From positions 14,196-58,540 of the forward strand of contig SHMW01000017.1 in the NCBI GenBank assembly GCA_008080735.1: DNA of 44,345 nucleotides, read 5' to 3'. This document shows, piece by piece, positions 18,833-44,345 of the stretch; within the stretch, counting starts at the first letter, position 1, and each line of letters begins with the position of its first letter. The DNA comes from Promethearchaeota archaeon. Its GTDB lineage: Archaea; Asgardarchaeota; Lokiarchaeia; Sigyniarchaeales; SOKP01. The position numbers and the translations under genes were made by a program. The notes beneath the pieces were generated by a model, which saw only the letters and a list, made by a program, of their open reading frames with translations, was not told where the DNA came from and did not search any database.

Positions 18833-19648
18833 TTATTGATACGACATAGCCATTGCAAATAAGCATGGACCGAAAATGATAAGCCCTAAGTATATAGATC
18901 CGAATATTGGAAAAAAATCTGTTGAGGGAAGACTGAAATTTTGCACAATTGCATAGGTAATAGCGGCAGAGAGTAAACCAAAAAACACGAAATAACCAAT
19001 AACCCCAAAGATAATTAGGTTTTTTCTGCTCTTGGAAGCTTTTGGTTTAGACGGTTCCTCTAAATAGGTTTGATGTGAAGGTCCTTGATACTCTTTATTA
19101 TCAGACTGACTAATAATTTCAATATCTATTCCCTTTTTTTTAAGCTTTTTTAACTGGCTTTTCGGGATATTCGCCATTGGGCTGAGAGCGATATATTGTA
19201 AATTATTCAAATTTTCCAATTCTCGAATATCTGTAACTTCGTTATCTTCTAAATAAATTCTTTTTAAATTGGTAAGATTAAACACCTCCCTAACGGCATC
19301 TATCCAATTATTATTGAGATTAATCATCTCCAAATTATTCAGATTATTTAATCCCCTAGCTTGAGCTATTTTATTATGGCTAAGAATTAAAACCTTCAAA
19401 TTCCTCAGATCGTCTAAGTTTTTGATTTCCGCTATATTGTTATTCGCAAGATTTAACATCTCTAAATTCTTTAAGTGTCCCAGATTTTTAATTTCCGTAA
19501 TGTTATTACCCGATAAGTCTAGTTTTTTTAAATTAGATAAATTTTCAAGACCGTTAATTTCAGAGATATCGGAAATATTCTGGTTTCTTAAAGAAAGCTT
19601 ATTATCTATTACCTCAAATACCTGATCTCGTACAGTGACTTGTACCAT
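18833..19648 (-). CDS. Leucine-rich repeat protein (SDS22-like) with two C-terminal TM helices
   Basis: About 6 copies of the 22-aa LxxLxxLxLxxNxIxxIxxL repeat, and a hydrophobic C-terminal pair. Confidence 0.9.
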   Translation of the reverse strand: MVQVTVRDQVFEVIDNKLSLRNQNISDISEINGLENLSNLKKLDLSGNNITEIKNLGHLKNLEMLNLANNNIAEIKNLDDLRNLKVLILSHNKIAQARGLNNLNNLEMINLNNNWIDAVREVFNLTNLKRIYLEDNEVTDIRELENLNNLQYIALSPMANIPKSQLKKLKKKGIDIEIISQSDNKEYQGPSHQTYLEEPSKPKASKSRKNLIIFGVIGYFVFFGLLSAAITYAIVQNFSLPSTDFFPIFGSIYLGLIIFGPCLFAMAMSYQ

Positions 19649-28034: not shown

Positions 28035-28913
28035 TTAAGTCATTTCTCTCTTTATAAGGTCTCGCTCTCTTAAATAATATTTGGGATAGTACCGTATCAC
28101 ACCCATACCTGCCGTGCGATTCCCCCCGACATTCGTGTATTCCCCGAAGCGGCACAAAATTTCGAGCCAGCGACAATTCTGCTCGTAATCGTCATTTACA
28201 TATTCGTAATCATACTCTCGCTCCAAGGTCTCTAATCTCTTTTTGTAGAAATTCTTGTTGATTGGGTTTACCCGATATGTGGCATTGCCCAACCCTCCGA
28301 CAACAGGACGACGTTTACCTATCTCTCTTTTTGCCGACCGCATTTTATATCCTGTAATATAGACATGGGCATTTATCCACTCGATAAATTCATCTCGGTT
28401 AATCTCGGCTACATTCTCGACGACTTCATTCCAAATATGTGCCAAATTTCCAAAAAGCAGTACGGGGATGGGAAATCGTACGGGATAATCCCCCATACTG
28501 GTGTTAAAATAAACTGGAGTCGCAAAATTGATGTTAAACCCACGCACGGGCTTGGCCTTCTCACACATACCCCTCAAATGAACTTTTTCGAAACTTATTC
28601 GGCTAATATAATAATTTTTCTCACCAAGCTCTAACTTGACCTTCTCGCCCGCCAGGATATCGTTCATAAGAAATTTACTCAAATTATCATTGTAGGATAC
28701 CAGAACGAAGTCAATTTTGGGCTGTTTTTTATGGATTATACAGTTGATTGAATAAGGTCTGATCTCCTCATACTCGTGGAGCAGATGGACGAGTTCCGGC
28801 TCCTTTTCGCTGAGCCATTTCATGATGACACCCCGAAAGACATAGCCGTAGGGATGGTTATAGGGCTTTACTCGATCGTCTTCGGGATATAGCTCGAAAG
28901 TGAGTTTTAACAT
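28035..28913 (-). CDS. cas6: CRISPR pre-crRNA processing endoribonuclease Cas6
   Basis: C-terminal Gly-rich loop GEYTNVGGNRTAGMG, LH...RPYS and FATPVYF. Last gene of the cas operon. Confidence 0.9.
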   Translation of the reverse strand: MLKLTFELYPEDDRVKPYNHPYGYVFRGVIMKWLSEKEPELVHLLHEYEEIRPYSINCIIHKKQPKIDFVLVSYNDNLSKFLMNDILAGEKVKLELGEKNYYISRISFEKVHLRGMCEKAKPVRGFNINFATPVYFNTSMGDYPVRFPIPVLLFGNLAHIWNEVVENVAEINRDEFIEWINAHVYITGYKMRSAKREIGKRRPVVGGLGNATYRVNPINKNFYKKRLETLEREYDYEYVNDDYEQNCRWLEILCRFGEYTNVGGNRTAGMGVIRYYPKYYLRERDLIKREMT

Positions 28914-28938
28914 TTTTTTTATTATTTTTATTAGGTTA

Positions 28939-31815
28939 TTAATTTAAATGTAAATTTTTAAGAATTGTTTGAGGGATTCCTGTATCAATATCTTTATTAT
29001 ATATGAATCCTGTCGTTTTGCTATACCATTCTGGGATATATTCCTCCTTTAAATAATAATAAAGAATTTTATCATTATCCAAACAGGTACTAACAATATT
29101 TCTGGTCTGTAAACTTTGTAAAATATTTTCATTAATAGTAATTGTATATCTGTAGAACTTATTTGGAATCGCGTTTATATGACCCTTAATTAATCCTTTA
29201 TGTATCTTTTTCGCTTTTGTATCTATAGGGATGAATAAATCCACTTGATTTGGATAACCCTCAATTAAATTAAAATTTTGGCTCAATAGATTAAATTTTA
29301 AATTTTTAAATTCTTTACATAAAACTCGAGTTGTATTGGGTTTTACAATTTCCTTAAAATATTGATCAAATTCACTCCTTAATTGTGGTTCTTCTATTTT
29401 AAAATATTTTCCAAAAAATTCATGATTCAAATTTTGACTAGATGCTTTTTTCAAGATATTTTCTGTGATATTCTTTACCATATTATTTTCGTAGATCCGA
29501 TGAAAAAATAGTCTATTATTTTTGTCTGAAGGATCTATTAACTTCATGAGAAAAAATAGACCCCCATCATCATATTCTAAATTTCGATTGCATCTTCCAG
29601 CAACTTGAATTATAGAATCTAAGGGTGCAAAATCTCGAAAAACTACTGAAAAAGAAAAATCAACTCCCGCTTCGATAACTTGAGTAGATATTACAATTAT
29701 TCGTTTCTTTTTTCTATCTAAACTAGATAATTGAGTATTATGTTTTAAATGAAATTTAATTTTTTCAATTTTATGTTGTCTATCCTTTGGCAATACTAAT
29801 GTTGATAATAATTCAATTTTTGTATTTTTTAGTTTTACTTTTGATAATTCTTGAAATGTTTTTATTGTAGCCCATTTTGTATTTAGTACTAGAAGAATAT
29901 CTTTATTTGGATTTGAACTCACATAGTCTAAAAATGAATCTATAAATTCTCCTAATAAAAATTCTCTTTCAAAATAAAAAATGGTGTATCTATTGATTGC
30001 TTGACAAAGTTCGATTTCATTTGGATAAGGTGAAATCTTAACCATTTTTTTCAAATGGTCTTTGGCTATCATCTCTGTATCATCTTTATGAATTATAGCT
30101 GGTAAAGTTGCAGTTGATAAAATAAAAGTAGAATTAAGTAAATGACTGAAATTTTCCACAATCTTTCCAATAATACCCCAGTACTTAATAGGAAGACATT
30201 GAACTTCATCTAAAATTATTATAGAATTCGCTAATCGATGAAATTTCAAAAAATTTTTTTTTAATGGTTTTATCAAAGAGTTGAAAATTTTAACAAATGT
30301 AGTAACTACAAATTCCGATCTCCAAGTTGATATTAACCATTTTGCATCCTTTCCGTAGATCATTTTAATTTCTTCTTCATGCAATTTCGACCCATTCTTA
30401 TATTCTTCTCTCCATGAAATATCACTAACGTAATTATCTATCGTTAAAAGAGAAGAACTTAAGATTTTTTTGTTATCCTTGTTTTCAAAAATATCACTTA
30501 TTTGATTTGCTACTTGTGAACCTATTGAGATAAATGGTAATCCATAAATGATTTTTGGTCTAAAACTATATTTTTTTTCATATTTACAAGAAAGCTTAAC
30601 GGCAAGATTTAGTAATGTTAAAGTTTTTCCCGCTCCAGTAGGGGAGCTTAACATGAATATTCCCCCCGCATCCAATTCTTCTTCATTTGCCTTTTTAAAT
30701 AATTGGTTTCGTAATTCGTATATTACATTTTTTGGTTCCTCGGGTTCAAATTTTTTTAATTTTTGACTAAATTTGGAAAAGGGTTTAGAAACAAAATTTA
30801 CTATAATGTTTTCATCTTTAAATGATTTAAAGGGAGGGGAAAATGGGAATTCATGTTGCTTTGCATTCTCCTTTGGAAAAAATCTGGCATCCCAAATATC
30901 TAGGTCACAGAGTAATGAAGCTACAAAAATTTGTAATACATAAAGATTAATTGAATCTGAACTATTGAACCCTTTCTTAATATTTTCGATCTTCTTAAAA
31001 TCTTTTTTAATTCTGTATCTGTAACTCATATCTAACGGATTTTGAGGATTTAAAGATAATAAGTCATTTTTGAATTTAATAAAAGCCTTTTTTAGTAAAT
31101 TATTTAATTCTTTTTGATATAAATCATAAAAAGGTAGATTGGAATTATGTGTGGGATTTTCTTTAGCTATATTGATTTTTTCTGAGAGATTCTCAAAAAA
31201 AGTATGTATATTTGATATGATAGAACTTATATAGCTAAAAATTACATTAAAATCCTCTGATCTGAAATCGCTTATAAATTCGATATAGTTTTCAAATATA
31301 TACGGAGAATGGTGATTTAGTATTGTATTAAACACTAAATATTTTATGATTTTTAATTCATTTTCAGATATTTTGTATTTGCCATCCAAACTGCTTAACA
31401 TCTGAATTTTTTTCTCATGATTGGCAAAATCACAAATTACGTCACATAAGCATATAGAAAATAAAGCACTTATTAGAGTATGATAAGAAAATTTAATCTC
31501 GCTACTTGGAATAGGGGAAGGATGTCGGTTATTTATTTCTCGATAAATTTTATATTGAAAATGTGGAAGGATCTTTCCGAAATCATGAGTGATGGTAGAT
31601 ATTAGTAAACTAATTTGTATAATTTTGTTAATTTGGGTTGAAAATGATAAGTAAGATCTGAGATATTCTTTGAGTTCAATAAAGATATTAGATATATGGT
31701 CAACAAGCGTTTGATCCGGTCTTGCGAGAAAAATAAATTCAGGATCTTCCCAAATCTCCATAAAATTTTTAAAATCTTTTTCAAACATTTTCTCGTTAAA
31801 AAAAAATTTAATCAT
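28939..31815 (-). CDS. cas3: Cas3 HD nuclease/SF2 helicase
   Basis: LVDH, HDFGK, YHTLIS, NHH and CDLD (HD domain). SPTGAGKT, LDEVQ, STAT, STQVIEAGVD and QVAGRCNR (helicase). Confidence 0.95.
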   Translation of the reverse strand: MIKFFFNEKMFEKDFKNFMEIWEDPEFIFLARPDQTLVDHISNIFIELKEYLRSYLSFSTQINKIIQISLLISTITHDFGKILPHFQYKIYREINNRHPSPIPSSEIKFSYHTLISALFSICLCDVICDFANHEKKIQMLSSLDGKYKISENELKIIKYLVFNTILNHHSPYIFENYIEFISDFRSEDFNVIFSYISSIISNIHTFFENLSEKINIAKENPTHNSNLPFYDLYQKELNNLLKKAFIKFKNDLLSLNPQNPLDMSYRYRIKKDFKKIENIKKGFNSSDSINLYVLQIFVASLLCDLDIWDARFFPKENAKQHEFPFSPPFKSFKDENIIVNFVSKPFSKFSQKLKKFEPEEPKNVIYELRNQLFKKANEEELDAGGIFMLSSPTGAGKTLTLLNLAVKLSCKYEKKYSFRPKIIYGLPFISIGSQVANQISDIFENKDNKKILSSSLLTIDNYVSDISWREEYKNGSKLHEEEIKMIYGKDAKWLISTWRSEFVVTTFVKIFNSLIKPLKKNFLKFHRLANSIIILDEVQCLPIKYWGIIGKIVENFSHLLNSTFILSTATLPAIIHKDDTEMIAKDHLKKMVKISPYPNEIELCQAINRYTIFYFEREFLLGEFIDSFLDYVSSNPNKDILLVLNTKWATIKTFQELSKVKLKNTKIELLSTLVLPKDRQHKIEKIKFHLKHNTQLSSLDRKKKRIIVISTQVIEAGVDFSFSVVFRDFAPLDSIIQVAGRCNRNLEYDDGGLFFLMKLIDPSDKNNRLFFHRIYENNMVKNITENILKKASSQNLNHEFFGKYFKIEEPQLRSEFDQYFKEIVKPNTTRVLCKEFKNLKFNLLSQNFNLIEGYPNQVDLFIPIDTKAKKIHKGLIKGHINAIPNKFYRYTITINENILQSLQTRNIVSTCLDNDKILYYYLKEEYIPEWYSKTTGFIYNKDIDTGIPQTILKNLHLN

Positions 31816-31826
31816 TAAATAAAAAA

Positions 31827-32843
31827 TTATAAGTTGATTTGATATAATTCCAGAGAGGATTTTACAAATTTTTTAGTATTTTTTATTGATGAAAATTCTT
31901 CTCCTTCATAGTAGTAAGTTATTTCTTTGTCTTCTTTGTATCCTATCTTAAAGATTTCATCCCCATATTTTTGAATTATTTCAATTAATCCCCCAATTTC
32001 AAAACAACACTCTTTAAAATTACTCGAATTATTATCTAATAACTTAATAGAATTTTTTATGTTAGGTATTTGTAATCGTGGATCTTTAGGGCAAATTGAT
32101 AATAATAAACGTGGCAGTTGCTGAAATTTAGTTCTTGTATTATGTGATTTTATTCCATTCCACATCGCGTTCAACAGATTTGGATAGTCTTCCTCTTGAG
32201 CACCAGAATATTTTGATAAAGATTTCTTAATAATACCATATACAGGAAAAATTGCATAATCAATTATTGAATATCTTCCCATAGATCCTGCCCCCTTTCC
32301 CGCTTCACTCGCCAGAGTTGAGGTTATTGGAATTCGAATAATCCGAGGAATATTCAAAGAGAGAGTATTTTGAAATTGAACTGGACCTGTGGTTGCATGT
32401 AAATCTCTGTGAACATAAAACATCGATCCAAAAAGGCGATGATCTATAAATCGAGTTTCTATTAGTTTAATTAGTTCTTTTCTAGACATATTTTTTAAGC
32501 GCTTTTTCGAAACATCAAAAATATCCATTAAGTTTTGCTTAATTGGTATTTCTTTTCCATTTTTATATTTGAAGGATTGTCTCATCAAGATATTGTTTTT
32601 TTGCGTTTTATCTTTATTTAGGAAATGTCTCCGAATCATATATTTAAAAGATACATCCGTGATTATTGCTCTTCTGGAATGCGAATCTATTCTTGGGCCT
32701 TGGAAGCCAGTTTCTCTTTCCCCGTTTGGATTACAGTCTCGCGCATCAAAAAGAAATAAAATTTGGCGAGAATTCAAATATTCAATTGAATTTCCATTAC
32801 CTATCTCGCTTCCGATAGCATTTTTATCTTCAGACTCAGACAT
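31827..32843 (-). CDS. cas7: Second, divergent Cas7b/Csh2-family protein
   Basis: CNPNG...PRID...ITDVSFKYMIR, FIDHRLFG, TGPVQF and NTRTKFQQLPRLL, all alignable to 33739-34707. Confidence 0.88.
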   Translation of the reverse strand: MSESEDKNAIGSEIGNGNSIEYLNSRQILFLFDARDCNPNGERETGFQGPRIDSHSRRAIITDVSFKYMIRRHFLNKDKTQKNNILMRQSFKYKNGKEIPIKQNLMDIFDVSKKRLKNMSRKELIKLIETRFIDHRLFGSMFYVHRDLHATTGPVQFQNTLSLNIPRIIRIPITSTLASEAGKGAGSMGRYSIIDYAIFPVYGIIKKSLSKYSGAQEEDYPNLLNAMWNGIKSHNTRTKFQQLPRLLLSICPKDPRLQIPNIKNSIKLLDNNSSNFKECCFEIGGLIEIIQKYGDEIFKIGYKEDKEITYYYEGEEFSSIKNTKKFVKSSLELYQINL

Positions 32844-32876
32844 TGTATTTTAAATCCTCTTTATTAAGAATTTTAT

Positions 32877-33734
32877 TTAGATTTCTTCAGATATTAGATC
32901 TTTACCATTAGGAATAAATATTATATTTAGGACTTCAGATTTATTATCCGCTATTTTGATTTCGACAGAATAAATATCTACATCATTTTTTACCTTAATC
33001 TTCAAATTACTCTCTTTACCACCGGGTAAAATGAAATTTTCTCCGAATGTATTAACAATTTTAGTATCTTTCATTTCCATTCTGATAGGGATATTCATAA
33101 TAATGGAAACTTTGCGTTCTAAAATATTCAAATAATTCTGATCTATACAAGAAACTGGAATTACAGAACTAATTCTTTCTATATCATTTGGAATTTTTTT
33201 AATGGGATATTCTCCAATATATATTATATCTGCTAAAAGATTTGCATGTCCTAAATATGTTGGAAAAATACTCCAATTATTTTTCAAATATCTTTTAAGT
33301 TTATCATACAATTCTTGATCTATTTCTTTTTCTGGTAATTTATAATAAATCCTATAATGCACGTCCCTTAATAGGTCCAATTTTACGTCAGTAACAAATC
33401 CGCGTTTTTCCCCATCAGAGAGATATGTTTTAAGTGTCCCCGATCTTCCACCTATATTCACAGTATATTTAGTATGAGCATAGTTAACTGTAAGAGGAGC
33501 ATGTTGAAATTCAGAATTCTCTCCTAAATTTAGCAACTGAATAGCAATTTCAGAATTACCTAATGGATCATCTATTTCCCAATAAGAATTTTTTTCTTTT
33601 CCTATCATTGCTCCAATTAATCCTATAATTGATGTTCTTGTAAAAGGAAACGAAAGTGTGGCACGAGTAACTTCTGGGGTTTTGAAAAAACCGAAGTCTC
33701 CTAACACATCAAATACTAAAACTTTATCTGTCAT
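32877..33734 (-). CDS. cas5: Cas5b (Cas5h) Cascade subunit
   Basis: FDVLGDFGFFK.PE....TLSFPF.RTSIIGLIGAMIG, DVHYRIY and TYLGHANLLA. Confidence 0.92.
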   Translation of the reverse strand: MTDKVLVFDVLGDFGFFKTPEVTRATLSFPFTRTSIIGLIGAMIGKEKNSYWEIDDPLGNSEIAIQLLNLGENSEFQHAPLTVNYAHTKYTVNIGGRSGTLKTYLSDGEKRGFVTDVKLDLLRDVHYRIYYKLPEKEIDQELYDKLKRYLKNNWSIFPTYLGHANLLADIIYIGEYPIKKIPNDIERISSVIPVSCIDQNYLNILERKVSIIMNIPIRMEMKDTKIVNTFGENFILPGGKESNLKIKVKNDVDIYSVEIKIADNKSEVLNIIFIPNGKDLISEEI

Positions 33735-33738
33735 TTAA

Positions 33739-34707
33739 TTACTCTCCTTGAAAATCTAGCCAATCAACAGTAATACCTGAAAATTTTTTAGATAAATAGT
33801 TTTTAATGTTCTGAATCATCTCGTCTCCATCATATAAAGCTAACGCATCATCATGGAGAAGATTTATAGAATCTATATTTTCTTTTCCTCCCTCTATTCT
33901 CTCTATAAAAGTTGAGATATCCAAACGAGCCTCCTCAACTGAGTTGATCTCGTTTTCCTTTAATATGAATCCAAGATCCAGATCGCCAATTTGTGATTTA
34001 CCTTTTTTTGATTCTATATCCATTAATAGTCGCGGCATATGGTTAAATTTACTTCTTGTATTCAATTGTTTAGTTCCCATCCACATCCCTCGGAATAATT
34101 CATTCAAATCCTCTCTTGTAAACATAGTTTTTATCGCATTTATTTCACTTGCAATTCCATGGAAGTTTATCAAGGAATAATCCACTATATGATATTCTCC
34201 AAAAGTTCCTTGACCCTTCTCTTCTGTAGAAGCAAGAGTTGCGGTAATTGTCTTTGTCTTTATTAATGGTTTATTCAAAGAACGACCTAATCCAAATTGA
34301 ACTGTCCCTGTAATGGAATAATTAGCGTTTGATAAAGTTACCGCGGCTCCAAAACTCCTAACATCTATAAATTCCTTAGGTAAATCTGTTGCTAATTTTG
34401 CACGTGCTTCAGCGGCTTTAGATTTAGTAATAGAACCCATATTTAAAAACTCTGTTGCCAAATCATCCATGGTTTTTCTATTACCCTCTTTATTTGTTTC
34501 GGCTCGTACTAATATCTTTTCTCCATTTTCTAACCAAAAATCCCGGATCGTTCTCTTTAATCGAACATCAGTTACAATATTTTGTTCAGTTTCATCATCC
34601 ATACGTGGCATGTTTGAGTTATCGGGATCCCCGTTTGGATTTGCGTCTCTCACATCATACATGAACACAATTTCATGTCTATTTTCCAATAAATTATTTT
34701 TTGACAT
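33739..34707 (-). CDS. cas7: Cas7b/Csh2 Cascade backbone subunit (type I-B)
   Basis: YDVRDANPNGDPD.N.PRMD, VTDVRLKRTIRD, FIDVRSFG, SITGTVQFG.GRSL and TRSK...PRLL. Confidence 0.95.
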   Translation of the reverse strand: MSKNNLLENRHEIVFMYDVRDANPNGDPDNSNMPRMDDETEQNIVTDVRLKRTIRDFWLENGEKILVRAETNKEGNRKTMDDLATEFLNMGSITKSKAAEARAKLATDLPKEFIDVRSFGAAVTLSNANYSITGTVQFGLGRSLNKPLIKTKTITATLASTEEKGQGTFGEYHIVDYSLINFHGIASEINAIKTMFTREDLNELFRGMWMGTKQLNTRSKFNHMPRLLMDIESKKGKSQIGDLDLGFILKENEINSVEEARLDISTFIERIEGGKENIDSINLLHDDALALYDGDEMIQNIKNYLSKKFSGITVDWLDFQGE

Positions 34708-34801
34708 TTTTATAACCCTTCCTTAATTTTGAATTTTTTAGTTTTTGAGTTTTGTTAAGAATTTTAAGCAAAAACTCAACTAAGAAATTATTTTATAATA
34801 T

Positions 34802-36187
34802 TCACCGATTGATTTTTCTGAATAAACGGAAAAAACTTTCATAACCTTGAATAAATGAAATTATAACTTCATTAGGATCTACTCTTTCCGGTAAGGTCCC
34901 AATTAGTTTTACTAATTTTACTCTTATTTTGTTTAATTTTTGGAAATATTTTATATCATTTACGTTCTTTCGGGATATTTTTAGAGATTTTTCAATCTGA
35001 TCGCTCCATAAATATATATAAGTCTTGTATATTTCCATATATAACTCTTGAATGCTCTTCCTCACAAAATGCCGAAATAAAACATTTAATCTTTTATCTA
35101 ATCTCCCTGTTTTTACGGTTAATTTTTCTTCATGATTAGTCGTCTGAAATAGAATTCCCAATAAAAATGCTACTTTCTCAGCCTTATTTCTAAACTTCAT
35201 TTTCTTAAATTGATTAACATAATGATCTTCTGTGACAATATTTTTACCTCCAACTGAAATGGTTTTAGGTTCTCCAATATCTTCAAATATGTCTTTTTCT
35301 TTATAGCTATATTTTAGGCAATCTTCCCACAGAAATCCTGTAATAAAACCTAAAAAAAGATCTTCATCTCTAAAAGTTATAGTATCCTCCGCTATATATT
35401 TAAAAATGTCTAGTTGGATATTATCGTAGGGCAAAAATGTATTGATATCATTTTTTGGAATCTTTGAAATATTTGTGGTAAAGATTTTCAAAATAATACT
35501 ATTTGTTTCTCGTAAAATTTTTCTCAAATTTCTTAGATTGGGATTTCTTATATAGGATTTTAGAAATTTATTTAAACTTGAGGTCTTTAAATCTCTAATT
35601 TGCTTTTTAATGACTCGGAAGATGAATAATGCTGAGAGGAAACCCAATTGAAATGAATAATTCTTCTCATATCCATCATAATGCCATATTTTTTCGTAAA
35701 CAGGTGGGTTTATATTTTTTTTGCCAAATGTATCTAAAATCGCCATGGAATATAGATTATATCCAGTTATCATAGCTAAACTAAGATCTTCAGGGTCAGA
35801 TACCCAATCCCCCTCTTTTAAATTAGATAGTAAATCATCTACTTTTTCATAGAGAAAAGTTCTTGGAATATGTTTAGTTTTTGCTATAGAATTCTGAAGT
35901 CGTTTACATTTTTTCCATAAAAACTTGGCTTTTTGGTATGAGACTATTTTAAAAAGAATTATAACCTCTTTTGGAATACTCCCTGTTTGGTAAAATTTTT
36001 GTTGTCTATACGTGGTGTTATTTAAAAGCGCTCCCAAATAAAGTATCGTTCTAAGATCCTTTTCTTTGAAAAATCTCGTAGACTTAAATTCGTTTAAACG
36101 CGTTTCAAAAGCCTCCTTAATCTTATTTAAATAATCTACAAATTGACTCTTTTCACTAGTAAGATTTACGTTAATCATGTTTGACAT
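34802..36187 (-). CDS. Protein of three tandem Cas11b-like (small subunit) domains
   Basis: Three ~110-120 aa units, each opening with [YF]-x-LG-x-L (LYLGALL / FQLGFLS / AFLLGILF) and closing with D-x-[ED]...[IQT]-G-[YF] (DPEDLSLAMITGY / RDEDLFLGFITGF / DPNEVIISFIQGY). This resembles the C-terminal Cas11 region of Csh1/Cas8b. Start at 36187 overlaps the cas8 stop (TAATG) and follows GGAGG. Confidence 0.72.
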   Translation of the reverse strand: MSNMINVNLTSEKSQFVDYLNKIKEAFETRLNEFKSTRFFKEKDLRTILYLGALLNNTTYRQQKFYQTGSIPKEVIILFKIVSYQKAKFLWKKCKRLQNSIAKTKHIPRTFLYEKVDDLLSNLKEGDWVSDPEDLSLAMITGYNLYSMAILDTFGKKNINPPVYEKIWHYDGYEKNYSFQLGFLSALFIFRVIKKQIRDLKTSSLNKFLKSYIRNPNLRNLRKILRETNSIILKIFTTNISKIPKNDINTFLPYDNIQLDIFKYIAEDTITFRDEDLFLGFITGFLWEDCLKYSYKEKDIFEDIGEPKTISVGGKNIVTEDHYVNQFKKMKFRNKAEKVAFLLGILFQTTNHEEKLTVKTGRLDKRLNVLFRHFVRKSIQELYMEIYKTYIYLWSDQIEKSLKISRKNVNDIKYFQKLNKIRVKLVKLIGTLPERVDPNEVIISFIQGYESFFRLFRKINR

Positions 36188-37761
36188 TATTGATAATCCC
36201 TCCATAATTTGCCATTAGAAAATAAGAAATTATATAATTCATAACTTTTTAATGGGGATCTATAAGATAATTTTATTCTCTTTTTTTCATCATTTTCTGT
36301 TCTAAATGCAATAAAACTCTTTTTTAAAGGTACCGCAGTATCTTTAATAAAATTTTTCCTGTACACTTTTTTTAAACTTAATAATGAAGAATAATAATGC
36401 AAAAAACTTCTCGAATCCATTAAATTTTTTAGCCCCGATAAGCGAACTTTATTAATATCTAGAATATCATTATTCTTTGCCTTGAAAAAAAGATCTGCAA
36501 GCTTTTCGATATTACTGCTGTTCATAATAATTTGAGACATAATTTGTTTTGTCTTAGGATTTAATTTTTGATTGGTTATTTTAAAATATAAATCCATTAT
36601 AGGTATTGCCTTTTCCTCTGAAAATAATTCAATAACAATCTCTTCGATAGGGAATGAATTTGAAATACTTTCCAGTTGTTTTTCATTCTTTGAAATCCTT
36701 TCTTGATAATCTGTTTTTAATTTATTCAATTCCTTTTTTGTTAATTCTTTTGCTTTCTCATTAATATCTTCAATTGAAGAACGTAATTGTTTTAAGTTAT
36801 CTTCAAAATTTTTCTTAGCTTTTTCATCATAATGTTGTTTTGCTTTTTTTATCGTTTCAACGTCATCTTTTAAAGACTTTAAATCTTTAGACAATGGTAT
36901 TACATAATGATAGATCGGAACAGATTTTCTTCCTTCTTTAATTTTATAGGAATAAAAAGTTAGATCTTCTTTCAAAATAACATAGCCTAAAAGGGAATAA
37001 AAATAACAATTGCTACACATGAGATATTGGAATGAAAAATCTGAGGTATTTTCAAAAAATGCAGATTGAAAACTGGCTTGATCTATTGTATATAATCCAA
37101 AATTAAACCCTTCACGAATACCTTTTGAACTTCCGCAAATCGAACATTTTCCATCTTCATCTAATTTATCCGTTTTTCCAAGATAAATATATTCATACAT
37201 TCTGCGCATTAGAGGAATCTCTCCCAAGAATTTTTCACCGTCTTCATCAATTATTTTAAATATCAATGGATTTTGGAAGCTAGAATATCCTTGTTTTTCT
37301 AAAAAATTAGCAAGCTTCTCTTGAATTTCTTTTTTATTTTCTTTAATATATTCAAGTAGATTTTTAATCTTTAGAGTATAATTTCCAAAATCAGCTTCTA
37401 ATAACTCAAAAATAGGTTTTTTATCGATCTTTTCCTTGAGGATTTTAATGATTTTATTTAGCTTGATTTTTCTATTCTTTCCCGATTTACTCCAACCAGT
37501 ACTCAAGGTTAATGAATAATTTGTTGATCTCCCAGAGGTCAATCCTAAAAGATAATCTCTTGATTTTTCAGCTTCATAATCAATAATTCTATACTCAAAT
37601 GAGATATCTTCGATTTCCTGAATATTTGCTTTTATTGTTAGTAATTTTGGAGGATTTTCATCATCTGATTTAACAGGATTTTGGGTTCTTATTAAAATTT
37701 CATATGGTTCTTGTTCATCGTAAAACGCTCTCCCGATCTTTTGGATTTGATTAATAATCAT
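36187..37761 (-). CDS. cas8b: Cas8b1 (Csh1/TM1802-like) large subunit lacking the C-terminal Cas11 domain
   Basis: MI..I..IG N-terminus, CSIC...YTIDQASF...CSNC zinc finger (similar to Csh1 FYT.DK.GF) and YVIP. First gene of the Cascade block. Confidence 0.78.
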   Translation of the reverse strand: MIINQIQKIGRAFYDEQEPYEILIRTQNPVKSDDENPPKLLTIKANIQEIEDISFEYRIIDYEAEKSRDYLLGLTSGRSTNYSLTLSTGWSKSGKNRKIKLNKIIKILKEKIDKKPIFELLEADFGNYTLKIKNLLEYIKENKKEIQEKLANFLEKQGYSSFQNPLIFKIIDEDGEKFLGEIPLMRRMYEYIYLGKTDKLDEDGKCSICGSSKGIREGFNFGLYTIDQASFQSAFFENTSDFSFQYLMCSNCYFYSLLGYVILKEDLTFYSYKIKEGRKSVPIYHYVIPLSKDLKSLKDDVETIKKAKQHYDEKAKKNFEDNLKQLRSSIEDINEKAKELTKKELNKLKTDYQERISKNEKQLESISNSFPIEEIVIELFSEEKAIPIMDLYFKITNQKLNPKTKQIMSQIIMNSSNIEKLADLFFKAKNNDILDINKVRLSGLKNLMDSRSFLHYYSSLLSLKKVYRKNFIKDTAVPLKKSFIAFRTENDEKKRIKLSYRSPLKSYELYNFLFSNGKLWRDYQ

Positions 37762-37932
37762 TTTCTTTTATGTTGATTAATACCCTGTATTTTTTGAATA
37801 AATGTCCTTTTTTAATAAATTATTAATAAGTTTATGATTTAAAAGTTTTGTGAAATTAACAAATTTAACAATTTGTCAATTTTGATTTTTGATGAAATTC
37901 TTAATTAATTGAAATTAAAACTGATCCAATTC

Positions 37933-39084
37933 CTAAATAAAATAAATATTTTTATTATTTTCCAATAAATTAGATAAAAAATAAGAGAATTCAGCAATTC
38001 GACCATGATTGAGTACTATCTTTTTTGGTTGACAATCGCTTATAAATTCAGTTAAATTCTTAAAGTCGACATGATCACTATACTTAAAATATTCGTCAAC
38101 GGGGAATTTGTTCCTATATTCTTCACTTATAACTTTACCACTTAATAATACTAATTTTGCTCCCGACCTGATTAGTGTTTTATAGGGTTCTCTAAACATA
38201 TAATACGGAGGAATTAATAAGACGTAATCTTTTTTCTTTTTCAATTTATTTTTTGTATAATTTCCATATGGTTCCCAATTTCCAAAATCAATTCCATTCA
38301 ATTCCAATATCTCTACAATGTTCGATATCGATCTCTCTAGTATAACTTTTTTAGAACATTCAAGCATATTAAGGATTGCTTGGCTTTTACCAAACGAATA
38401 AGATAATATAATTATGGGGAATCCTTGAGTTAGATGTGTTTTAACATACTCATTTATTCTTTTTTTTAATGTAAAGAATGAAGGAAATGTAAATTTTGGA
38501 GATCCATATGTACATTCTGTTATTAAATAATCACATTTAATTGGTTCTAAGCCCCTTAATCCTGTTCTATTTTTTCCGAAATACTTGTTCTCGCCGATAA
38601 AATCACTTGTAATTAAGATCCTTTCTGACCCCTCGATCAATAGGCTCCTCGATCCGTATGTATGGCCGTTCTCTATTAAACTTATTTTGAGATTGTCAAA
38701 ATAAATAGATTCTCTTGTTTTATTACTCTTCCCTAATAACCACATCGATTCTGGAAAGGTAAATTTCTCTCTTTTCCTATGTTCTGCTATTTCTTTAGTT
38801 ATTTTGGTGCATAGAAATCCAACCTCGGAATCACCTTTTTCTAGTTTTGTTATATCTTTATTAGGAATATTTGGGATATGATCCATATGCGCATGTGAAA
38901 TATAAATTAAATCCGCTTTAGGATTCCAATGATCAATAGCAATTAGAGTATCATCAATTTTTATAAAATTTCCATATAATGCATGTTTGCGAATTATCAC
39001 ATTTTTATTTTTTAATCCATGATCTCTTTCTTTACTTCTTAAATAATTTTTTAAATTTCGTATAGGATTTTCTAATTTTTCCAT
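37933..39084 (-). CDS. MBL-fold beta-CASP nuclease within the cas locus
   Basis: IAID, SHAHMDH, NGHTYGS, TSDF, ITECTYG (motif A), YSFGKSQ, YSDHVD (motif B) and LNHG (motif C). Confidence 0.9.
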   Translation of the reverse strand: MEKLENPIRNLKNYLRSKERDHGLKNKNVIIRKHALYGNFIKIDDTLIAIDHWNPKADLIYISHAHMDHIPNIPNKDITKLEKGDSEVGFLCTKITKEIAEHRKREKFTFPESMWLLGKSNKTRESIYFDNLKISLIENGHTYGSRSLLIEGSERILITSDFIGENKYFGKNRTGLRGLEPIKCDYLITECTYGSPKFTFPSFFTLKKRINEYVKTHLTQGFPIIILSYSFGKSQAILNMLECSKKVILERSISNIVEILELNGIDFGNWEPYGNYTKNKLKKKKDYVLLIPPYYMFREPYKTLIRSGAKLVLLSGKVISEEYRNKFPVDEYFKYSDHVDFKNLTEFISDCQPKKIVLNHGRIAEFSYFLSNLLENNKNIYFI

Positions 39085-39134
39085 TGAGAACTTCCCATTT
39101 TCTTTTGTATAAAATTAAAATTTTTCTTAAATAA

Positions 39135-39809
39135 TTATGCCCTTAAACAATATGTATTACATTCACAATCTCTACATTTATTTTTATGGCTCGTCGGGTC
39201 AGGAATCTTTTCTGAATGTATCATTTCTTGAATTTCTTTAATAACTTTAAGTACATTTAACTTATCCTCAATACCAATAGGGTATTCAATAAATTTTTCA
39301 TACTTCAAATAAAACACACGAACTTTTTTTACTAGAAAATCGAAATTTCTCTCAATTAAAAGTGCTTGAGCAGCAACTTGGTATTTATCTGGATTTTTCA
39401 TCCCTTCTGGTGGAATATTTCCTGATTTAATCTCAATCGGATACGCCTCATTCCCATCGTACTCAAAGTAGTCTATTACACCCACTAATCCGACTTCAGA
39501 ATCTGTTAGATAGATATTAAAATATTTTTGAGTTTTTTCATGAGATTTATTCGATAATTTTTGTAATTCTTCATGCTTCTCTAAACCATATTGCATTTTA
39601 TAAGTTTGCCTCATTGGGGAGTTCAAAACATATCTAAAAAATATCTTTCTTTTACAATATATATACTGTCGAATCTCCTCTGTCCCTATTAAAGATTTCT
39701 CAAATAAATTAATATTTGGATATGCTCTTCTAATATTATTTAACTCATCTCTTCCCAGCCTGTATTTCCTCAATAATTCTTCAATTCCTTTTTCTTTCAT
39801 TATATTCAA
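39135..39809 (-). CDS. cas4: Cas4 RecB-like nuclease with Fe-S cluster
   Basis: QYIYCKRK, G...H, GVID, PIEIKSG, QVAAQ and KCRDCECNTYC (1+3 Cys). Confidence 0.93.
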   Translation of the reverse strand: MNIMKEKGIEELLRKYRLGRDELNNIRRAYPNINLFEKSLIGTEEIRQYIYCKRKIFFRYVLNSPMRQTYKMQYGLEKHEELQKLSNKSHEKTQKYFNIYLTDSEVGLVGVIDYFEYDGNEAYPIEIKSGNIPPEGMKNPDKYQVAAQALLIERNFDFLVKKVRVFYLKYEKFIEYPIGIEDKLNVLKVIKEIQEMIHSEKIPDPTSHKNKCRDCECNTYCLRA

Positions 39810-39858
39810 TAGAATGGAATAATGATTTTTCTTTAAACTAATTGGAATTTACATTTAT

Positions 39859-40152
39859 CTACATTGACAAAATATCTTCAATTACTTTATAGCCATCCCC
39901 AAATTTAGATTTGACCGTTATAACTTTTGAATGACATCTTTTGCATATCGGAATTATTCGCACATCTCCAGGGACATTCTTCATCAATTTCTCTAACTTT
40001 AAGGCAATCTCCTCGGCTTTGTTATACGTAAGGTCACCAAAAAATACGCTATAATTTAAGCGAACCATATAATATGATAATAGAATATCCGAGATTTTCG
40101 TGCGAATCGGATCAAATTCCACAGGAATATCATAAATAACCAGAAATTTTAT
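39859..40152 (-). CDS. cas2: Cas2 (probable non-ATG start)
   Basis: Extending the ORF upstream gives IKFLVIYDIP...R.KISDIL..Y...R.NYSVFFG...DVRIIPICKRC. The VIYDI motif lies upstream of the GTG used by the ORF track. Confidence 0.9.
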   Translation of the reverse strand: MKFLVIYDIPVEFDPIRTKISDILLSYYMVRLNYSVFFGDLTYNKAEEIALKLEKLMKNVPGDVRIIPICKRCHSKVITVKSKFGDGYKVIEDILSM

Positions 40153-40265
40153 GATTAAAACCTCCTTTAATTTAGTCTCGTTTTTTTAATTTTGTATTTG
40201 TTAAATCTAATCGATCAATTATGAGTTGTAATTTATATTAGACATATACTTAATGAGCATATCCC

Positions 40266-41345
40266 TCACCAATCCATAATATACGGCTCGTAGGAAGATG
40301 TAGAGCCGATAAGATAATTAGCTAATCTTCTTGCTTGCTTTACCATAGCTTTTTTATAATTCTTTTTCATTACATTTTTAATGTCTTCGTCATATTCCGA
40401 CTCGGAAAATAATTCTTCTGATTTATCCCCGCCTTGGACTTCTTTCCTCAATTCTTCATAGTATAATGACTTTTTTTCTTGGGTCAACCGATATCCGTGA
40501 AGCGATTGCTCAAAATCCTCCACTTTTAACTGGTTCTGCTGTATTAAACGGAGAACTAATCTGTCGATAATTGGTTGCCTAAACTCTTCAAGAAGATCAA
40601 GCGCTAATGATGGTTTACCTGACCGATCGCTATGAAGAAATCCGCCATATAATTCCAATCCCGCTGAAGCAATTGCGGTCGTTACGTGCCCTTGAAGTAC
40701 AGTATATCCAAGAGATAATAGTGAATTTACGGGATCCTTAGGTGGCCGCCTTGACCTTTGAAATGTCTTAAATTCATTGGGAAATGAATTTCCGTATGCT
40801 TGAAAATAGATGGCAGCAGATTTTCCTTCAATTCCCATTATCTCACGCCTCCTCTTATTAATTGTATCTCCTTTAGAGATAGTCTTTTTGAACTTTTCCA
40901 ATACTTTCGTCATTTTCTTTAAATTCTTCGCAGCTACGTCAAGAAATTTAGCTTTTGCTGGACTATTCTTGCGACGATTTTTCGCTAAATATTTCAATAA
41001 CCTCCGTTTATTCTCAATCGTAGCGTAGGCTATTTGCGATGCTACATGCAACCCTCTCTGATCTTCATACGCAAGAATTTGTTGTCTACGAGTAAATACA
41101 GTACCAACATTAGCGAAAGGAGTAAAAAGACCATATGGATTCCCAAGGGAAGTATATACGATATTTACCGCATAAGAGGAAAGCGCTTTTAACGCTTGCG
41201 ACGTAATTTGCACCCCGTTACCGACAATTATGCTTTCTACTTCCCTTAGTGGGATTTCGACGTTGTCTCTTTCTGGAACTGAAATCTTTATCATCTCTTT
41301 CCTTTTACCAACCCGGGTTCCAGGAGTTTCTAAAATTATATCCAT
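40266..41345 (-). CDS. cas1: Cas1 integrase
   Basis: MGIEG..A..YF, RRPPKDPVNSLLSLGY, GFLH and SLALDLLEEFR; catalytic E, H and D/E are present. Confidence 0.96.
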   Translation of the reverse strand: MDIILETPGTRVGKRKEMIKISVPERDNVEIPLREVESIIVGNGVQITSQALKALSSYAVNIVYTSLGNPYGLFTPFANVGTVFTRRQQILAYEDQRGLHVASQIAYATIENKRRLLKYLAKNRRKNSPAKAKFLDVAAKNLKKMTKVLEKFKKTISKGDTINKRRREIMGIEGKSAAIYFQAYGNSFPNEFKTFQRSRRPPKDPVNSLLSLGYTVLQGHVTTAIASAGLELYGGFLHSDRSGKPSLALDLLEEFRQPIIDRLVLRLIQQNQLKVEDFEQSLHGYRLTQEKKSLYYEELRKEVQGGDKSEELFSESEYDEDIKNVMKKNYKKAMVKQARRLANYLIGSTSSYEPYIMDW

Positions 41346-41473
41346 TTTTAATTTTTTTCTCTCTCTGTTTTATTTTGATGCAAATTTATCTGTTCTACTG
41401 TTTATATATTCCTTATTAACTTTTTTTATATATTCTCCTTTCTCGAATACTGGTTGTTTTATACATTTTCTGT

Positions 41474-43174
41474 TTAGATTATTACTCTCCCGATTAATTC
41501 ATTTATATGGATAATTGAGGGTTCTCGTGAAAGATTTGTGTTCGAAATTAACCAAGGACCTAATGAAGCATAAACATTATACATTTCCAACTTATTCAAT
41601 TGATATGATTTTATTTGAAAAAAATCCTCTACAACATTTCCAAAAAGTCTGTATAACACCGTCACATTGGGGTTCGATTTCCTTGTTTTATCTTCCTCTT
41701 TTAATATAGCATCTAAAAGTATATTGGATAAGTTTGAAGAGTTCGGTTTAGCATCGATGAAATTACTCACAAGTAAATAATGCCCTACATACTCCTCAAG
41801 ATAATCTCTAAACTCGGTATATAGGGGTGGAAATTTTCTGTAAATATTAATAACATTTAAGACTTCTATATCCAGCTTTAAAAGGGCATCAACGATGCAC
41901 TTCAATAATTCTGAAGGTCTAATGAGTAAATAGTTAAGCAAACCTTTAACTTTGGTGTCATTGTAATAATTAAGAAACGAAAAGATTAACCATTCTGTTA
42001 TTCGATCTTTCATAATGTTTGCTGATATCTCCTCTTCTTCCGGTGAAAATATGACTCTCAAATGGAAAGGCTTGGAATTATTATGATTTTGGTCATTCTG
42101 ATGAATCTGATGATTATTATAACAATTATAGAGGTCATAATAATAATTATCCTTATTACGATAATCTGAGCTGATGGAATCATTCATAATTTTAGAATAA
42201 TTTTTATCCTCCCTATCCTCCCTATCCTCATTATCCTCATTATGATTTGTTATTTCTATAACCGAGATTAACTCTCTCGCTACTTTTGATAATAAGTTTG
42301 TTAGTGTTTCCAAATTGATGATTCGATTTCGACGCCCTAAGATTACACCAAACAAGCCTCCCTCCCAAATCATTTGATATTTTAGCGATCCTAACGGAGC
42401 TATTGTAATCTTGAGTGTCTGTGTATCATACATGACTAATCCGATTCCATAATCTTTTAAGCATGGATTTAATCGCTCTGAGTCCTTAGGAAAACCACAT
42501 TGCGGTTCTAACAAGTTCTCACATAATACATCATTTTTATAAGAGGCACTTACAAAATCCTTGCCGGCCTCATTGGATTTATTATTAGGTTGATGTCCGT
42601 CTCTGGAATGGGTTAAGTTAAAAGCATTTTCGATTACCGCATTTAGACAATCCCAATAATCATAATATACCTTCTTCTGACAATCAGCACATAAGGCAAT
42701 TGGAACCTGTTTTAGAGGTTTTGATGGGATTATTGGTTTTGGTGATATCATTGGCTTTGATAACTCTAGTGGCTTTAATGAATTTGATTGTTTTGAAGCT
42801 CCTTTAATAAGATTACTATTTTGACGACTATCTCTACTTTTAAATTTGCCCGTTAACGGTGTCTTAGTGAAACAGTTATAGTTCTTAAGGTTGCTTTCGC
42901 ATAAAACACATACTTTCTTAGAAGTAAAATTCACATTTACAGACCCATAAAAATATGTCAATTGAGTATCACGTTGGGGAGAATGAATATCAAGATACGG
43001 ATACCATCTCCCTAAATATGGCCTTAAGATAATGCGCTTAATAATCTTCCTGGGAAAAATTAATTGTAAACTCTCCTTAACAAATATGTCTGAAGCCTCT
43101 AAAAGAACGTTTTCAACTTCGTATTTCCCCAAAATGGAATTACTTTGACCTTCTTGAGAAAACGCATCTTCCAT
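41474..43174 (-). CDS. Divergent DUF2797-like Zn-binding protein with low-complexity insertions
   Basis: CVLC...CADC...C...C..C...C pattern, TLKITIA...MIWEGG and C-terminal LGPWLI...HINELIGR recall the DUF2797 layout. Recognition is tentative. Confidence 0.5.
   Translation of the reverse strand: MEDAFSQEGQSNSILGKYEVENVLLEASDIFVKESLQLIFPRKIIKRIILRPYLGRWYPYLDIHSPQRDTQLTYFYGSVNVNFTSKKVCVLCESNLKNYNCFTKTPLTGKFKSRDSRQNSNLIKGASKQSNSLKPLELSKPMISPKPIIPSKPLKQVPIALCADCQKKVYYDYWDCLNAVIENAFNLTHSRDGHQPNNKSNEAGKDFVSASYKNDVLCENLLEPQCGFPKDSERLNPCLKDYGIGLVMYDTQTLKITIAPLGSLKYQMIWEGGLFGVILGRRNRIINLETLTNLLSKVARELISVIEITNHNEDNEDREDREDKNYSKIMNDSISSDYRNKDNYYYDLYNCYNNHQIHQNDQNHNNSKPFHLRVIFSPEEEEISANIMKDRITEWLIFSFLNYYNDTKVKGLLNYLLIRPSELLKCIVDALLKLDIEVLNVINIYRKFPPLYTEFRDYLEEYVGHYLLVSNFIDAKPNSSNLSNILLDAILKEEDKTRKSNPNVTVLYRLFGNVVEDFFQIKSYQLNKLEMYNVYASLGPWLISNTNLSREPSIIHINELIGRVII
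42205..42240. repeat. Four in-frame 9-bp tandem repeats TATCCTC(CC/AT)
   Basis: tatcctccc tatcctccc tatcctcat tatcctcat, encoding the NEDNEDREDRED tract on the minus strand. Confidence 0.85.
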
Positions 43175-43949
43175 AGAACTATTTACACCTCAATTTTTTT
43201 CATATTGTCTCAAATCGCCTTAGCCTACTTAAACCACCTATATGGCGAAATCCTTTTTCAGTTATTAAGCTGTTGTGTTGTAGGAATTATGTCGTTAATA
43301 TATCAATCTTCAACATATAAAAAGGAAAAATTATCATATTTAAATATAACTCCATCGTGAAATTTGGGATTTTTAACAAATATTCAAGATTTTTTGATTT
43401 CGTCAGGTATATCTTAGCTGCTTTTCGATAGAAAATAATTCAGATTACCCGTCTTTATAATAGGCTGGTTTTTTTCGCTAAAATAAATATAACTTAACTT
43501 ATACTCTTCCAGCATTGTTGCGTTAGAGGGTAAATCCATTTTATAATTCTTTTAATATTAAACTACAAACTTTTCATCATTGTGGCTACCCCGATTAGAT
43601 TCACTAATAAATTTTAAAATTTGAGTGAGGATCAAAAAAACATTCTTCATTCTAAGTCTAAAATTTTTTTCCCAAAATTACAATATCTTTTATCTCCTGA
43701 ATTCATATCTTATATCAAAATTCACATTTGGGATCAAAATCTATTTAAAGTATATATATCATTTCGAGTCTTAAAGCTAAGTTATGAATAGATTTTTCAT
43801 AACTTAAAATTATGGACGCCATCATGACCGCTGAGGCGGGGTACCTCCCTAAAAAGCTTACTTGATCAAGTGAACTCTCGTAAAATAACTCTGTTTTGAC
43901 TACGGTTCATTGAGATAAAAATCCTCAAAATCTAAGATATCCTCAAAGA

Positions 43950-44285
43950 TTTGATTTATATGCGATAAATAGAATGGAGAAAAACCCTTCTCCATCGATT
44001 TCCTGGAAGCAAAAAATTTCGAGTCCTTGTTTTAAATAAATGAATTTTTTAGTAAGACTCGATTTACCTCTCCCTTTTGCAATTTTATTATATAGCGCTC
44101 GAAATATGATAAGTCTAAATAAGAAAACCATTGAATTAAATAAAATGAAAATTTGTGGCATTAATTCATTTTGCCGTCTCAATTATTCACAGAAAAATTT
44201 TCATTCGAAATATAATCGTAAAATGAAAGTGAAAAACCAAAAAAATAAATACCGAGAAGACCTTTTTTTCTAGTAATATTTAAGG
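43950..44285 (+). promoter_or_regulatory. Putative CRISPR leader
   Basis: AT-rich, no credible ORF, immediately upstream of the repeat-like sequence. Boundaries approximate. Confidence 0.5.
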
Positions 44286-44287
44286 AG

Positions 44288-44345
44288 GACATAGAATATA
44301 GCTTCAGAAAGAAGATTGAAATATGCAAGAAGGTATGTGTTCAGT
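44288..44345 (+). CRISPR. Probable first CRISPR repeat (ends 44322) plus partial spacer, truncated by the window end
   Basis: GACATAGAATATAG-CTTC-AGAAA-GAAG-ATTGAAAT: a 4-bp stem followed by exactly 8 nt (ATTGAAAT), the usual Cas6 handle. Only one copy is visible, so the 5' boundary is uncertain. Confidence 0.6.

Follow-up and report, generated by a model that had tools for sequence, protein, structure and literature searches.

A type I-B CRISPR-Cas variant from an Asgard archaeon with a triplicated Cas11, a second Cas7b and, probably, a position-specialised Cascade

In descriptions of type I Cascade complexes, the backbone is a homopolymer of Cas7 and the small subunits are all alike; types I-B, I-C and I-D make their small subunit, Cas11, by internal translation. 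An Asgard lineage appears to break both of these rules. We analysed a window of 44,345 nucleotides (nt) from a Promethearchaeota archaeon (contig SHMW01000017.1 of assembly GCA_008080735.1), in which 12 co-oriented open reading frames (ORFs) on the minus strand, running from 43174 to 28035, encode a DUF2797-like protein, Cas1, Cas2, Cas4, a beta-CASP protein, Cas8b, a triple Cas11, Cas7b, Cas5b, a second Cas7b (Cas7b-2), Cas3 and Cas6. This order, proposed in an initial annotation of the sequence, proved correct, and all 12 genes are intact. The reading that we favour, and consider likely, is that of an active type I-B system (related to Hmari and Cas8b1) carrying out DNA interference, in which a position-specialised Cascade stands beside an independently mobile acquisition cassette, UAS-44. 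The clear departure from type I architecture lies in a conserved single-chain belly and a specialised second Cas7, and we describe the system as a new I-B variant, probably with a position-specialised Cascade and with ordinary DNA interference by Cas3.

The gene between cas8b and cas7b had been proposed to be a threefold cas11, an identity that profile-profile comparison to stand-alone Cas11 and to the Cas8b C-terminus bore out. Its product has no match in Pfam, NCBIfam or PADLOC, and its three units match one another with E-values of 4e-11 to 4e-13 (shuffled or reversed controls, E>0.06). The units also match the stand-alone Cas11 genes of 140-170 amino acids (aa) that other Asgards carry between cas8b and cas7 (E 1e-13 to 3e-15), and for units 1 and 3 a match to the C-terminus of a fused Cas8b was obtained (E 1e-8 and 5e-10); one stand-alone Cas11 gene, in turn, matches the C-terminus of a Cas8b model. 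An exhaustive profile search with the triple Cas11 returned 18 proteins with E<1e-30, nearly all of them matched over their full length, followed by proteins of 130-170 aa that match each third and by the C-terminus of a 723-aa Cas8b. The predicted model consists of three repeated helical bundles (predicted template modelling score, pTM, 0.82). Unit 3 is similar to the Cas8c C-terminal domain (8dej; Z 8.0, root-mean-square deviation (rmsd) 3.5, 113 residues aligned), and unit 1 matches I-A Cas11 and I-B Cas8 C-terminal domains weakly (Z 4.9-5.7). The top structural match of the whole protein in VIA-align, PIEZO1, was rejected as a generic helical match (rmsd 8.6), and a PDB sequence search with alignment A2 gave nothing relevant.

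In the tree, the units group by position, each of the three being set apart from the others by a branch (SH-aLRT 88-94, unstarred), a pattern consistent with a single old triplication of Cas11 followed by specialisation of the units. The ratio of nonsynonymous to synonymous substitution rates (dN/dS) is about 0.16 in each unit, most units carry a net positive charge, and no conserved internal start was seen before units 2 or 3. Triple-length genes that resemble Cas11 but are highly diverged, with 26% identity between the two, were also observed at L017:9290-10675 and L097:6624-7922; their middle unit groups with unit 2, and a 304-aa gene after cas5 in L017 has no Cas7 profile match.

The Cas8b of the window aligns to residues 1-525 of a fused 723-aa Cas8b (P0034; E 1.8e-27) and matches none of the Cas11 units (E>0.19). 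Because it covers only the N-terminal part and is without a Cas11 unit, the large subunit is split. P0034 is a PF09484 protein, and the orthologue of the window's Cas8b in locus L117 also carries PF09484. A separate cas11 gene had been counted among the deviations special to this locus, which it is not, as at least 12 further loci from this phylum have a split Cas8b with a single Cas11. The arrangement, with a Cas11 of 140-170 aa, was seen in L013-L016, L054, L093-L095, L098, L101, L107, L110 and L111, and the frequency of stand-alone cas11 in Asgard I-B contradicts the textbook statement that I-B has no cas11 gene; reviews of Cas11, in the portions available, likewise describe I-B as lacking a separate cas11 gene. 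Long Cas8b of the fused type occurs alongside (for example, in L102-L106 and L108), and the split Cas8b with a single Cas11 is a plausible intermediate.

The two Cas7b proteins, whose genes flank cas5, are 33% identical, and each forms a starred clade in the tree. Cas7b-1 retains the residues common to single-copy Cas7b. In Cas7b-2, about 22 of the positions that other Cas7b conserve are lost; the protein has gained invariants of its own and is usually more basic. Its mean identity is 47%, versus 59% for Cas7b-1, and its dN/dS of 0.17 indicates purifying selection. The order cas7-cas5-cas7 lies downstream of all 11 triple-Cas11 homologues that were looked up (11/11) and is found in genome G133 and locus L117 as well. 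The full effector order of triple Cas11 and two Cas7b recurs in 13 other loci, all named hosts of which are Asgard. A pattern search for the second Cas7 across 185,579 GTDB genomes found a match in G133 only, and the variant is rare in the genomes searched. The heteromeric Cas7 pair and the covalently triplicated small subunit, both put forward in the initial annotation, are therefore conserved, selected and syntenic features; from them we infer a fixed number of small subunits and the co-assembly of both Cas7 proteins in one complex.

In two sister lineages, one of Helarchaeota and one of Promethearchaeota, Cas5 and Cas7b-2 are joined in frame by a linker of ~30 residues. The two fusion lineages are 50% identical, and one was seen in three metagenome samples. 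These natural Cas5-Cas7 fusion genes lie at L113:7088-8923 and L117:10001-11845 and encode 611 and 614 aa. Read from sequence, the fusion fixes a 1:1 ratio and suggests a single specialised Cas7b-2 beside Cas5. A second Cas7b duplication in the same family, independent of the first and arranged in tandem as cas7-cas7-cas5 with a single Cas11, was observed at L054:9198-11107 and L101:1173-2932.

Other roles for Cas7b-2 can be envisaged. Perhaps it forms the backbone's cap at the Cas6 (3') end, or mixes freely with Cas7b-1, in the manner of Cmr6/Cmr1 or Csm5, the fusion to Cas5 being an incidental read-through. Type III offers precedents for specialised Cas7 paralogues (PMC3973734), the thumb of Cas7b-2 is still of normal length, and adjacent co-oriented genes fuse easily; the single fusion event has nevertheless been kept through 50% divergence, forcing the 1:1 ratio with Cas5 in those lineages, and we regard this alternative as unlikely. 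A place outside Cascade, as a regulator, an anti-CRISPR decoy or the backbone of a second complex, would accord with the many conserved residues that Cas7b-2 has lost and with its faster evolution than Cas7b-1. Its gene, however, always lies between cas5 and cas3 in the effector operon, is subject to purifying selection and, in one clade, is joined to cas5, which makes such a role quite improbable. The idea of an assembly artefact or a decaying duplication draws on a metagenome-assembled genome (MAG) with 7% contamination and on an effector block (28939-37761) with a GC content of 28%, versus 34% in the genome and 36% in the left part of the window. It is effectively refuted by the same order in 13 other loci, the lack of stop codons, purifying selection (dN/dS 0.006-0.26 across the ten genes compared with L001) and an even depth. 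The flanking genes and the locus alike have a depth of mostly 3-7, with no joints, in two runs of one study that comprise contigs only and possibly the source sample itself; because of this, recurrence in independent assemblies is the stronger argument against chimerism, which had been named as a possible refutation and which we consider unlikely. The low GC content of the effector block is consistent with horizontal acquisition.

Several points weigh against a position-specialised Cascade as we propose it. The two fusions are sisters and thus count as one event, which is the sole positional evidence, and the length of their linker leaves the position of Cas7b-2 loose. The structural Z-scores of the Cas11 units are of a size that generic helical bundles also reach, and a Foldseek search of the PDB with the triple Cas11 model gave no match. 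With three units, the chain falls one short of the four belly domains in Synechocystis I-B; each complex may contain two chains or additional partners. The distant triple-length loci L017 and L097 have a single cas7, so that the triple Cas11 and the second Cas7 are not obligately coupled. Finally, the order of evolutionary events is unrooted, and stoichiometry, subunit positions and activity are deduced here from the genes.

The genes that flank cas1-cas2-cas4 belong to a different story. UAS-44 has been described as an acquisition-linked pair, a large DUF2797 zinc-finger protein and a beta-CASP protein (Altae-Tran 2023, PMC10910872 supplement). Its published representatives correspond to genes of L094/G106: the coordinates agree, the N-terminus of the beta-CASP protein is identical to uas44B, and the start of Uas44A is the same. 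The DUF2797-like and beta-CASP proteins of the window are 30% and 50% identical to this representative, and their genes are placed accordingly, the Uas44A homologue next to cas1 and the Uas44B homologue after cas4. Judged by sequence, the two genes are the published, already known UAS-44 and not changes to Cascade. The initial annotation had included beta-CASP (and the DUF2797-like gene) in a re-engineered Cascade, a view that was not borne out, as they travel with cas1-cas2-cas4 beside other effectors and several triple-Cas11 effectors are without them. The block of DUF2797-like gene, cas1, cas2, cas4 and beta-CASP is kept as a unit beside I-D (L140), I-B/Tneap (L139), I-B with a single Cas11 (L093, L094) and I-B with tandem cas7 (L054).

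This linkage also bears on whether beta-CASP might be an interference effector recruited to Cascade, with RNA targeting of the type VII kind. Its gene immediately precedes cas8b in the window and in six relatives, its active site is intact and kept in orthologues (HxHxDH, motifs A-C, with His at motif C), and Cas14 of type VII joins a beta-CASP to a Cas10/Cas11-like helical domain (PMC10910872). The protein of the window is, however, without the C-terminal domain of Cas14, and was rejected as Cas14 (the model matched at residues 51-244 of 612 only, with 39 bits versus a cut-off of 800); its best NCBIfam match is TIGR04122. Moreover, beta-CASP stays with cas1-cas2-cas4 beside I-D and I-B/Tneap effectors and where the UAS-44 block is inverted relative to the effector (L056), is missing beside the triple-Cas11 effectors L021, L113 and L116, and is published as acquisition-linked. 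Recruitment to interference is, in our estimation, very improbable.

The DUF2797-like protein (566 aa) has conserved Cys clusters and no Pfam match, including to the DUF2797 (PF10977) hidden Markov model. A low-confidence model, built on an alignment with one wrong row of 13, reached a template modelling (TM) score of 0.61 by target against the predicted structure of DUF2797; with the same model, Foldseek found nothing in the PDB and VIA-align gave Z<5. A match to G133 in a search with this alignment was discarded as spurious. A cryptic GIY-YIG-like fold has been reported for DUF2797 in a preprint (10.64898/2026.10.10.758204). Nuclease activity of the DUF2797-like protein is doubtful, as its Tyr and Arg positions look substituted by eye. 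The wrong row was the ORF at L019:17268-18986, whose apparent DUF2797/beta-CASP fusion arose from its own inclusion in the alignment; it is only a beta-CASP.

Some related loci differ around this cassette. The Asgard type I-D locus L140:9248-12486 has a separate Cas11d gene after Cas10d, beside a UAS-44 cassette. In close relatives, a gene of 171-175 aa with a weak AAA_assoc_C match lies between beta-CASP and cas8b (L001:7794-8321 and L003:2816-3331); it is absent from the window, where the intergenic DNA matches its flanks only, and a fragment remains in L107. Another kind of adaptation block (L019:17268-20699 and L143:2711-6066) combines a long Cas2 (270-290 aa) and a long Cas4 with a beta-CASP from a more distant clade that is extended at its N-terminus (560-576 aa). 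Beta-CASP may have become linked to adaptation more than once.

Taking these features together, we envisage the following mechanism for a type I-B system with a position-specialised Cascade. Cas6 would, by established chemistry, cut the 37-nt repeats into CRISPR RNAs with spacers of roughly 36-40 nt; the 5' handle would be bound by Cas5b, and Cas8b would read the protospacer adjacent motif (PAM). Spacers in variant loci are 35-41 nt long, the same as in ordinary Asgard I-B, and therefore, by analogy with Synechocystis I-B, about seven Cas7 subunits are expected in the backbone; the canonical Synechocystis complex is Cas8b1-Cas7b7-Cas5b1-Cas6b1-Cas11b3 (PMC11096372). From the fusion and the spacer length, one Cas7b-2 would sit directly after Cas5, with about six Cas7b-1 completing the backbone. 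The belly would be a single chain in which three diverged Cas11 domains, mostly basic, hold the displaced strand, replacing both the C-terminal domain of Cas8b and the free, internally translated copies of Cas11. Cas3, whose motifs are present, would then degrade the target DNA. The beta-CASP and DUF2797-like proteins, to judge from their linkage, most likely help Cas1-Cas2-Cas4 to make or trim prespacers. Extant architectures suggest a path from a fused Cas8b to a split Cas8b with a single Cas11, then to one triplication, a second Cas7 and, in one clade, the fusion of Cas5 with Cas7b-2.

It is tempting to go further and speculate that this hard-wired Cascade (Cas5 with one Cas7b-2, a Cas7b-1 filament, a single-chain belly of three domains and a Cas8b without its C-terminal domain) is a type I effector with a mechanism of its own that deserves a separate variant name. 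Locking of the R-loop and licensing of Cas3 might then bypass the Cas8 C-terminal domain, each position of belly and backbone might have a function of its own, and the whole might have converged on type III organisation. We offer this stronger version only tentatively.

Among known systems, the locus is most readily compared with type I-B. It has the defining features of type I (a Cas3 with HD nuclease and superfamily 2 (SF2) helicase; genes for Cas5, Cas7, Cas8 and Cas6; a CRISPR array) and of I-B (Hmari/I-B1), namely the Cas8b signature and the Cas7b/Csh2 and Cas5b/Cas5h families; Cas7b-1 exceeds the TIGR02590 cut-off, and Cas7b-2 and Cas5b have the same models as best matches below cut-off. 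It shares with I-B1 (Cas8b1/Csh1-Cas7b/Csh2-Cas5b, as in Thermotoga maritima and Haloferax volcanii) these subunit families, a fused HD-helicase Cas3, Cas6, Cas1-Cas2-Cas4, and repeat and spacer lengths of 37 nt and 36-40 nt. Unlike I-B1, in which Cas11 is an internal translation product of cas8b (PMC11899642, PMC13199841, 10.1101/2020.04.18.045682) and a single cas7 forms a homo-oligomeric backbone, it combines a Cas8b that lacks the C-terminal Cas11 domain with a separate three-domain Cas11 gene and two Cas7b, and in one clade with the Cas5-Cas7 fusion. In I-B2, listed as the CRISPR-associated transposon (CAST) variant in the available part of the 2025 classification, Tn7 genes (tns/tniQ) are present and Cas3 is lost, whereas Cas3 is intact here.

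The small subunit gene is separate from Cas8 in I-A and I-E Cascades too, which differ in using several copies of a single-domain Cas11, other Cas8, Cas7 and Cas5 families, and one cas7. Cas7 paralogues specialised by position, and repeated subunits that are covalently fused, recall type III (Cmr1/4/6, III-D and Cas7-11); unlike type III, the system has no Cas10, has Cas3 for DNA interference and is built from Cas7b and Cas8b, so that only the architecture would be convergent. A beta-CASP in an archaeal CRISPR locus is reminiscent of type VII (Cas14 beta-CASP, Cas7 and Cas5), defined, in the accessible part of PMC12669027, by the lack of an adaptation module and by III-D-related Cas7 and Cas5. 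The beta-CASP of the window, in contrast, is a 383-aa protein without the Cas10-like C-terminal domain, accompanied by Cas3, Cas8b, cas1-cas2-cas4 and Cas7 and Cas5 of I-B type. As in UAS-44, a DUF2797-like large zinc-finger protein and a beta-CASP flank cas1-cas2-cas4, but in the representative locus (G106/L094) the split Cas8b is accompanied by one Cas11 and a single Cas7.

Profiles of Pfam, NCBIfam and PADLOC match cas1, cas2, cas4, cas8b, both cas7b, cas5b, cas3, cas6 and beta-CASP (Table 1); the PF05107 matches of the two cas7b have E-values of 9e-60 and 3e-36. The catalytic motifs of Cas3, Cas1 and Cas4, reported as intact in the initial annotation, are so, and they are also conserved in orthologues: in Cas3 the HD, Walker A, DExQ and motif VI residues, in Cas1 the catalytic E/H/D, and in Cas4 the four Cys and the RecB-like core. 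The G-loop of Cas6 is likewise intact and conserved.

Table 1. Features of the CRISPR-Cas locus, with positions in the window.
Feature	Position	Strand	Evidence
DUF2797-like Cys-rich zinc protein, Uas44A homologue (acquisition-linked)	41474..43174	-	30% identity to UAS-44 representative gene in G106; TM 0.61; dN/dS 0.26
cas1	40266..41345	-	PF01867, E 4e-77
cas2	39859..40152	-	PF09827, E 2.5e-15; start probably 40152
cas4	39135..39809	-	TIGR00372 above cut-off
Short beta-CASP nuclease, Uas44B homologue, 383 aa	37933..39084	-	50% identity to L094 10582-11751; TIGR04122, E 1e-32
Cas8b, N-terminal part only, 524 aa	36187..37761	-	PADLOC Cas8b, E 5e-14, residues 3-484
Triple Cas11, with three helical small-subunit domains in tandem at about 30-165, 170-302 and 322-467	34802..36205	-	Profile-profile comparison, model
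Cas7b-1, canonical backbone subunit	33739..34707	-	TIGR02590 above cut-off
Cas5b	32877..33734	-	TIGR02592, E 7e-23 (below cut-off); PADLOC Cas5b, E 2e-31
Cas7b-2, divergent paralogue; one lineage has it joined to Cas5	31827..32843	-	Own starred clade; fusions P0054, P0055
Cas3 HD nuclease-helicase	28939..31815	-	PADLOC Cas3b, E 7e-126; TIGR01587 above cut-off
Cas6	28035..28913	-	PF10040 above cut-off
First CRISPR repeat, 37 nt	44286..44322	+	Matches mini-array repeat on contig C64 and arrays of L005/L020
Putative AT-rich leader and divergent promoter region	43175..44285		Without conserved ORF

The CRISPR array is transcribed away from the cas operon. The window ends with its contig, C17, and a contig from run X2 carries, at the same place, a repeat, a 38-nt spacer and a second repeat; with the repeat at the edge of the window, the array therefore continues past the contig end. 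A non-coding stretch similar to the putative leader lies between the array and the DUF2797-like gene in L001 and L005. Searches for protospacers and a PAM found none, and Rfam gave nothing meaningful. Elsewhere in the same genome, contig C64 (L062:9310-14480) carries a mini-array with a nearly identical repeat, next to two CARF genes of the NE0113 family, one Csx1 CARF gene and a RAMP, and contig C82 (L144:1-3525) the end of a type III-like operon with a second cas6. Arrays may be shared between the systems of the host genome.

An Asgard host had been suspected from the sequence, and the homologues, named as Promethearchaeota and Helarchaeota, agree. The host is a Promethearchaeota (Loki-group) archaeon, and G133, of the same order, is Promethearchaeota Bin_342. 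The flanking genes that have an annotation are of metabolic or regulatory kinds. Other products of the window are a 520-aa protein whose middle is a Ras/Roc small GTPase domain (5908-7470), an Asgard signature of eukaryote-like type, and a leucine-rich repeat protein (18833-19648). Among the related loci, a 903-aa reverse transcriptase ORF with a DUF7172 match and internal repeats lies upstream of a variant cas operon (L019:3297-6008), and cas6 is duplicated in tandem at L005:15187-17017 and L107:2080-4071.

The initial annotation knew of no described variant of this kind. This holds for the triple Cas11 and two Cas7, for which we found no named I-B variant, and not for the beta-CASP and DUF2797-like pair, published as UAS-44. 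The literature covered contained no type I variant with two cas7 or tandem Cas11; it did not extend to the 2020 work of Makarova on Asgard CRISPR, where a mention is possible and which, according to the available part of PMC8730458, concerns ARAMP and Cas1 variants. Nor does an I-B with tandem Cas11 or two Cas7 occur in the accessible parts of the text and supplements of the Makarova 2025 classification.

Fused, split, triplicated, two-Cas7 and Cas5-Cas7-fused forms stand side by side in related genomes, which makes the setting of small-subunit number testable, and the same series lets the need for the Cas8 C-terminal domain in R-loop locking and Cas3 recruitment be tested. The separate supply of Cas11 is a known obstacle when I-B systems are expressed in other hosts (PMC13199841), and a natural single-chain Cas11 trimer could spare it. 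For the acquisition side, the linkage data sharpen the case for UAS-44 as an effector-independent cassette.

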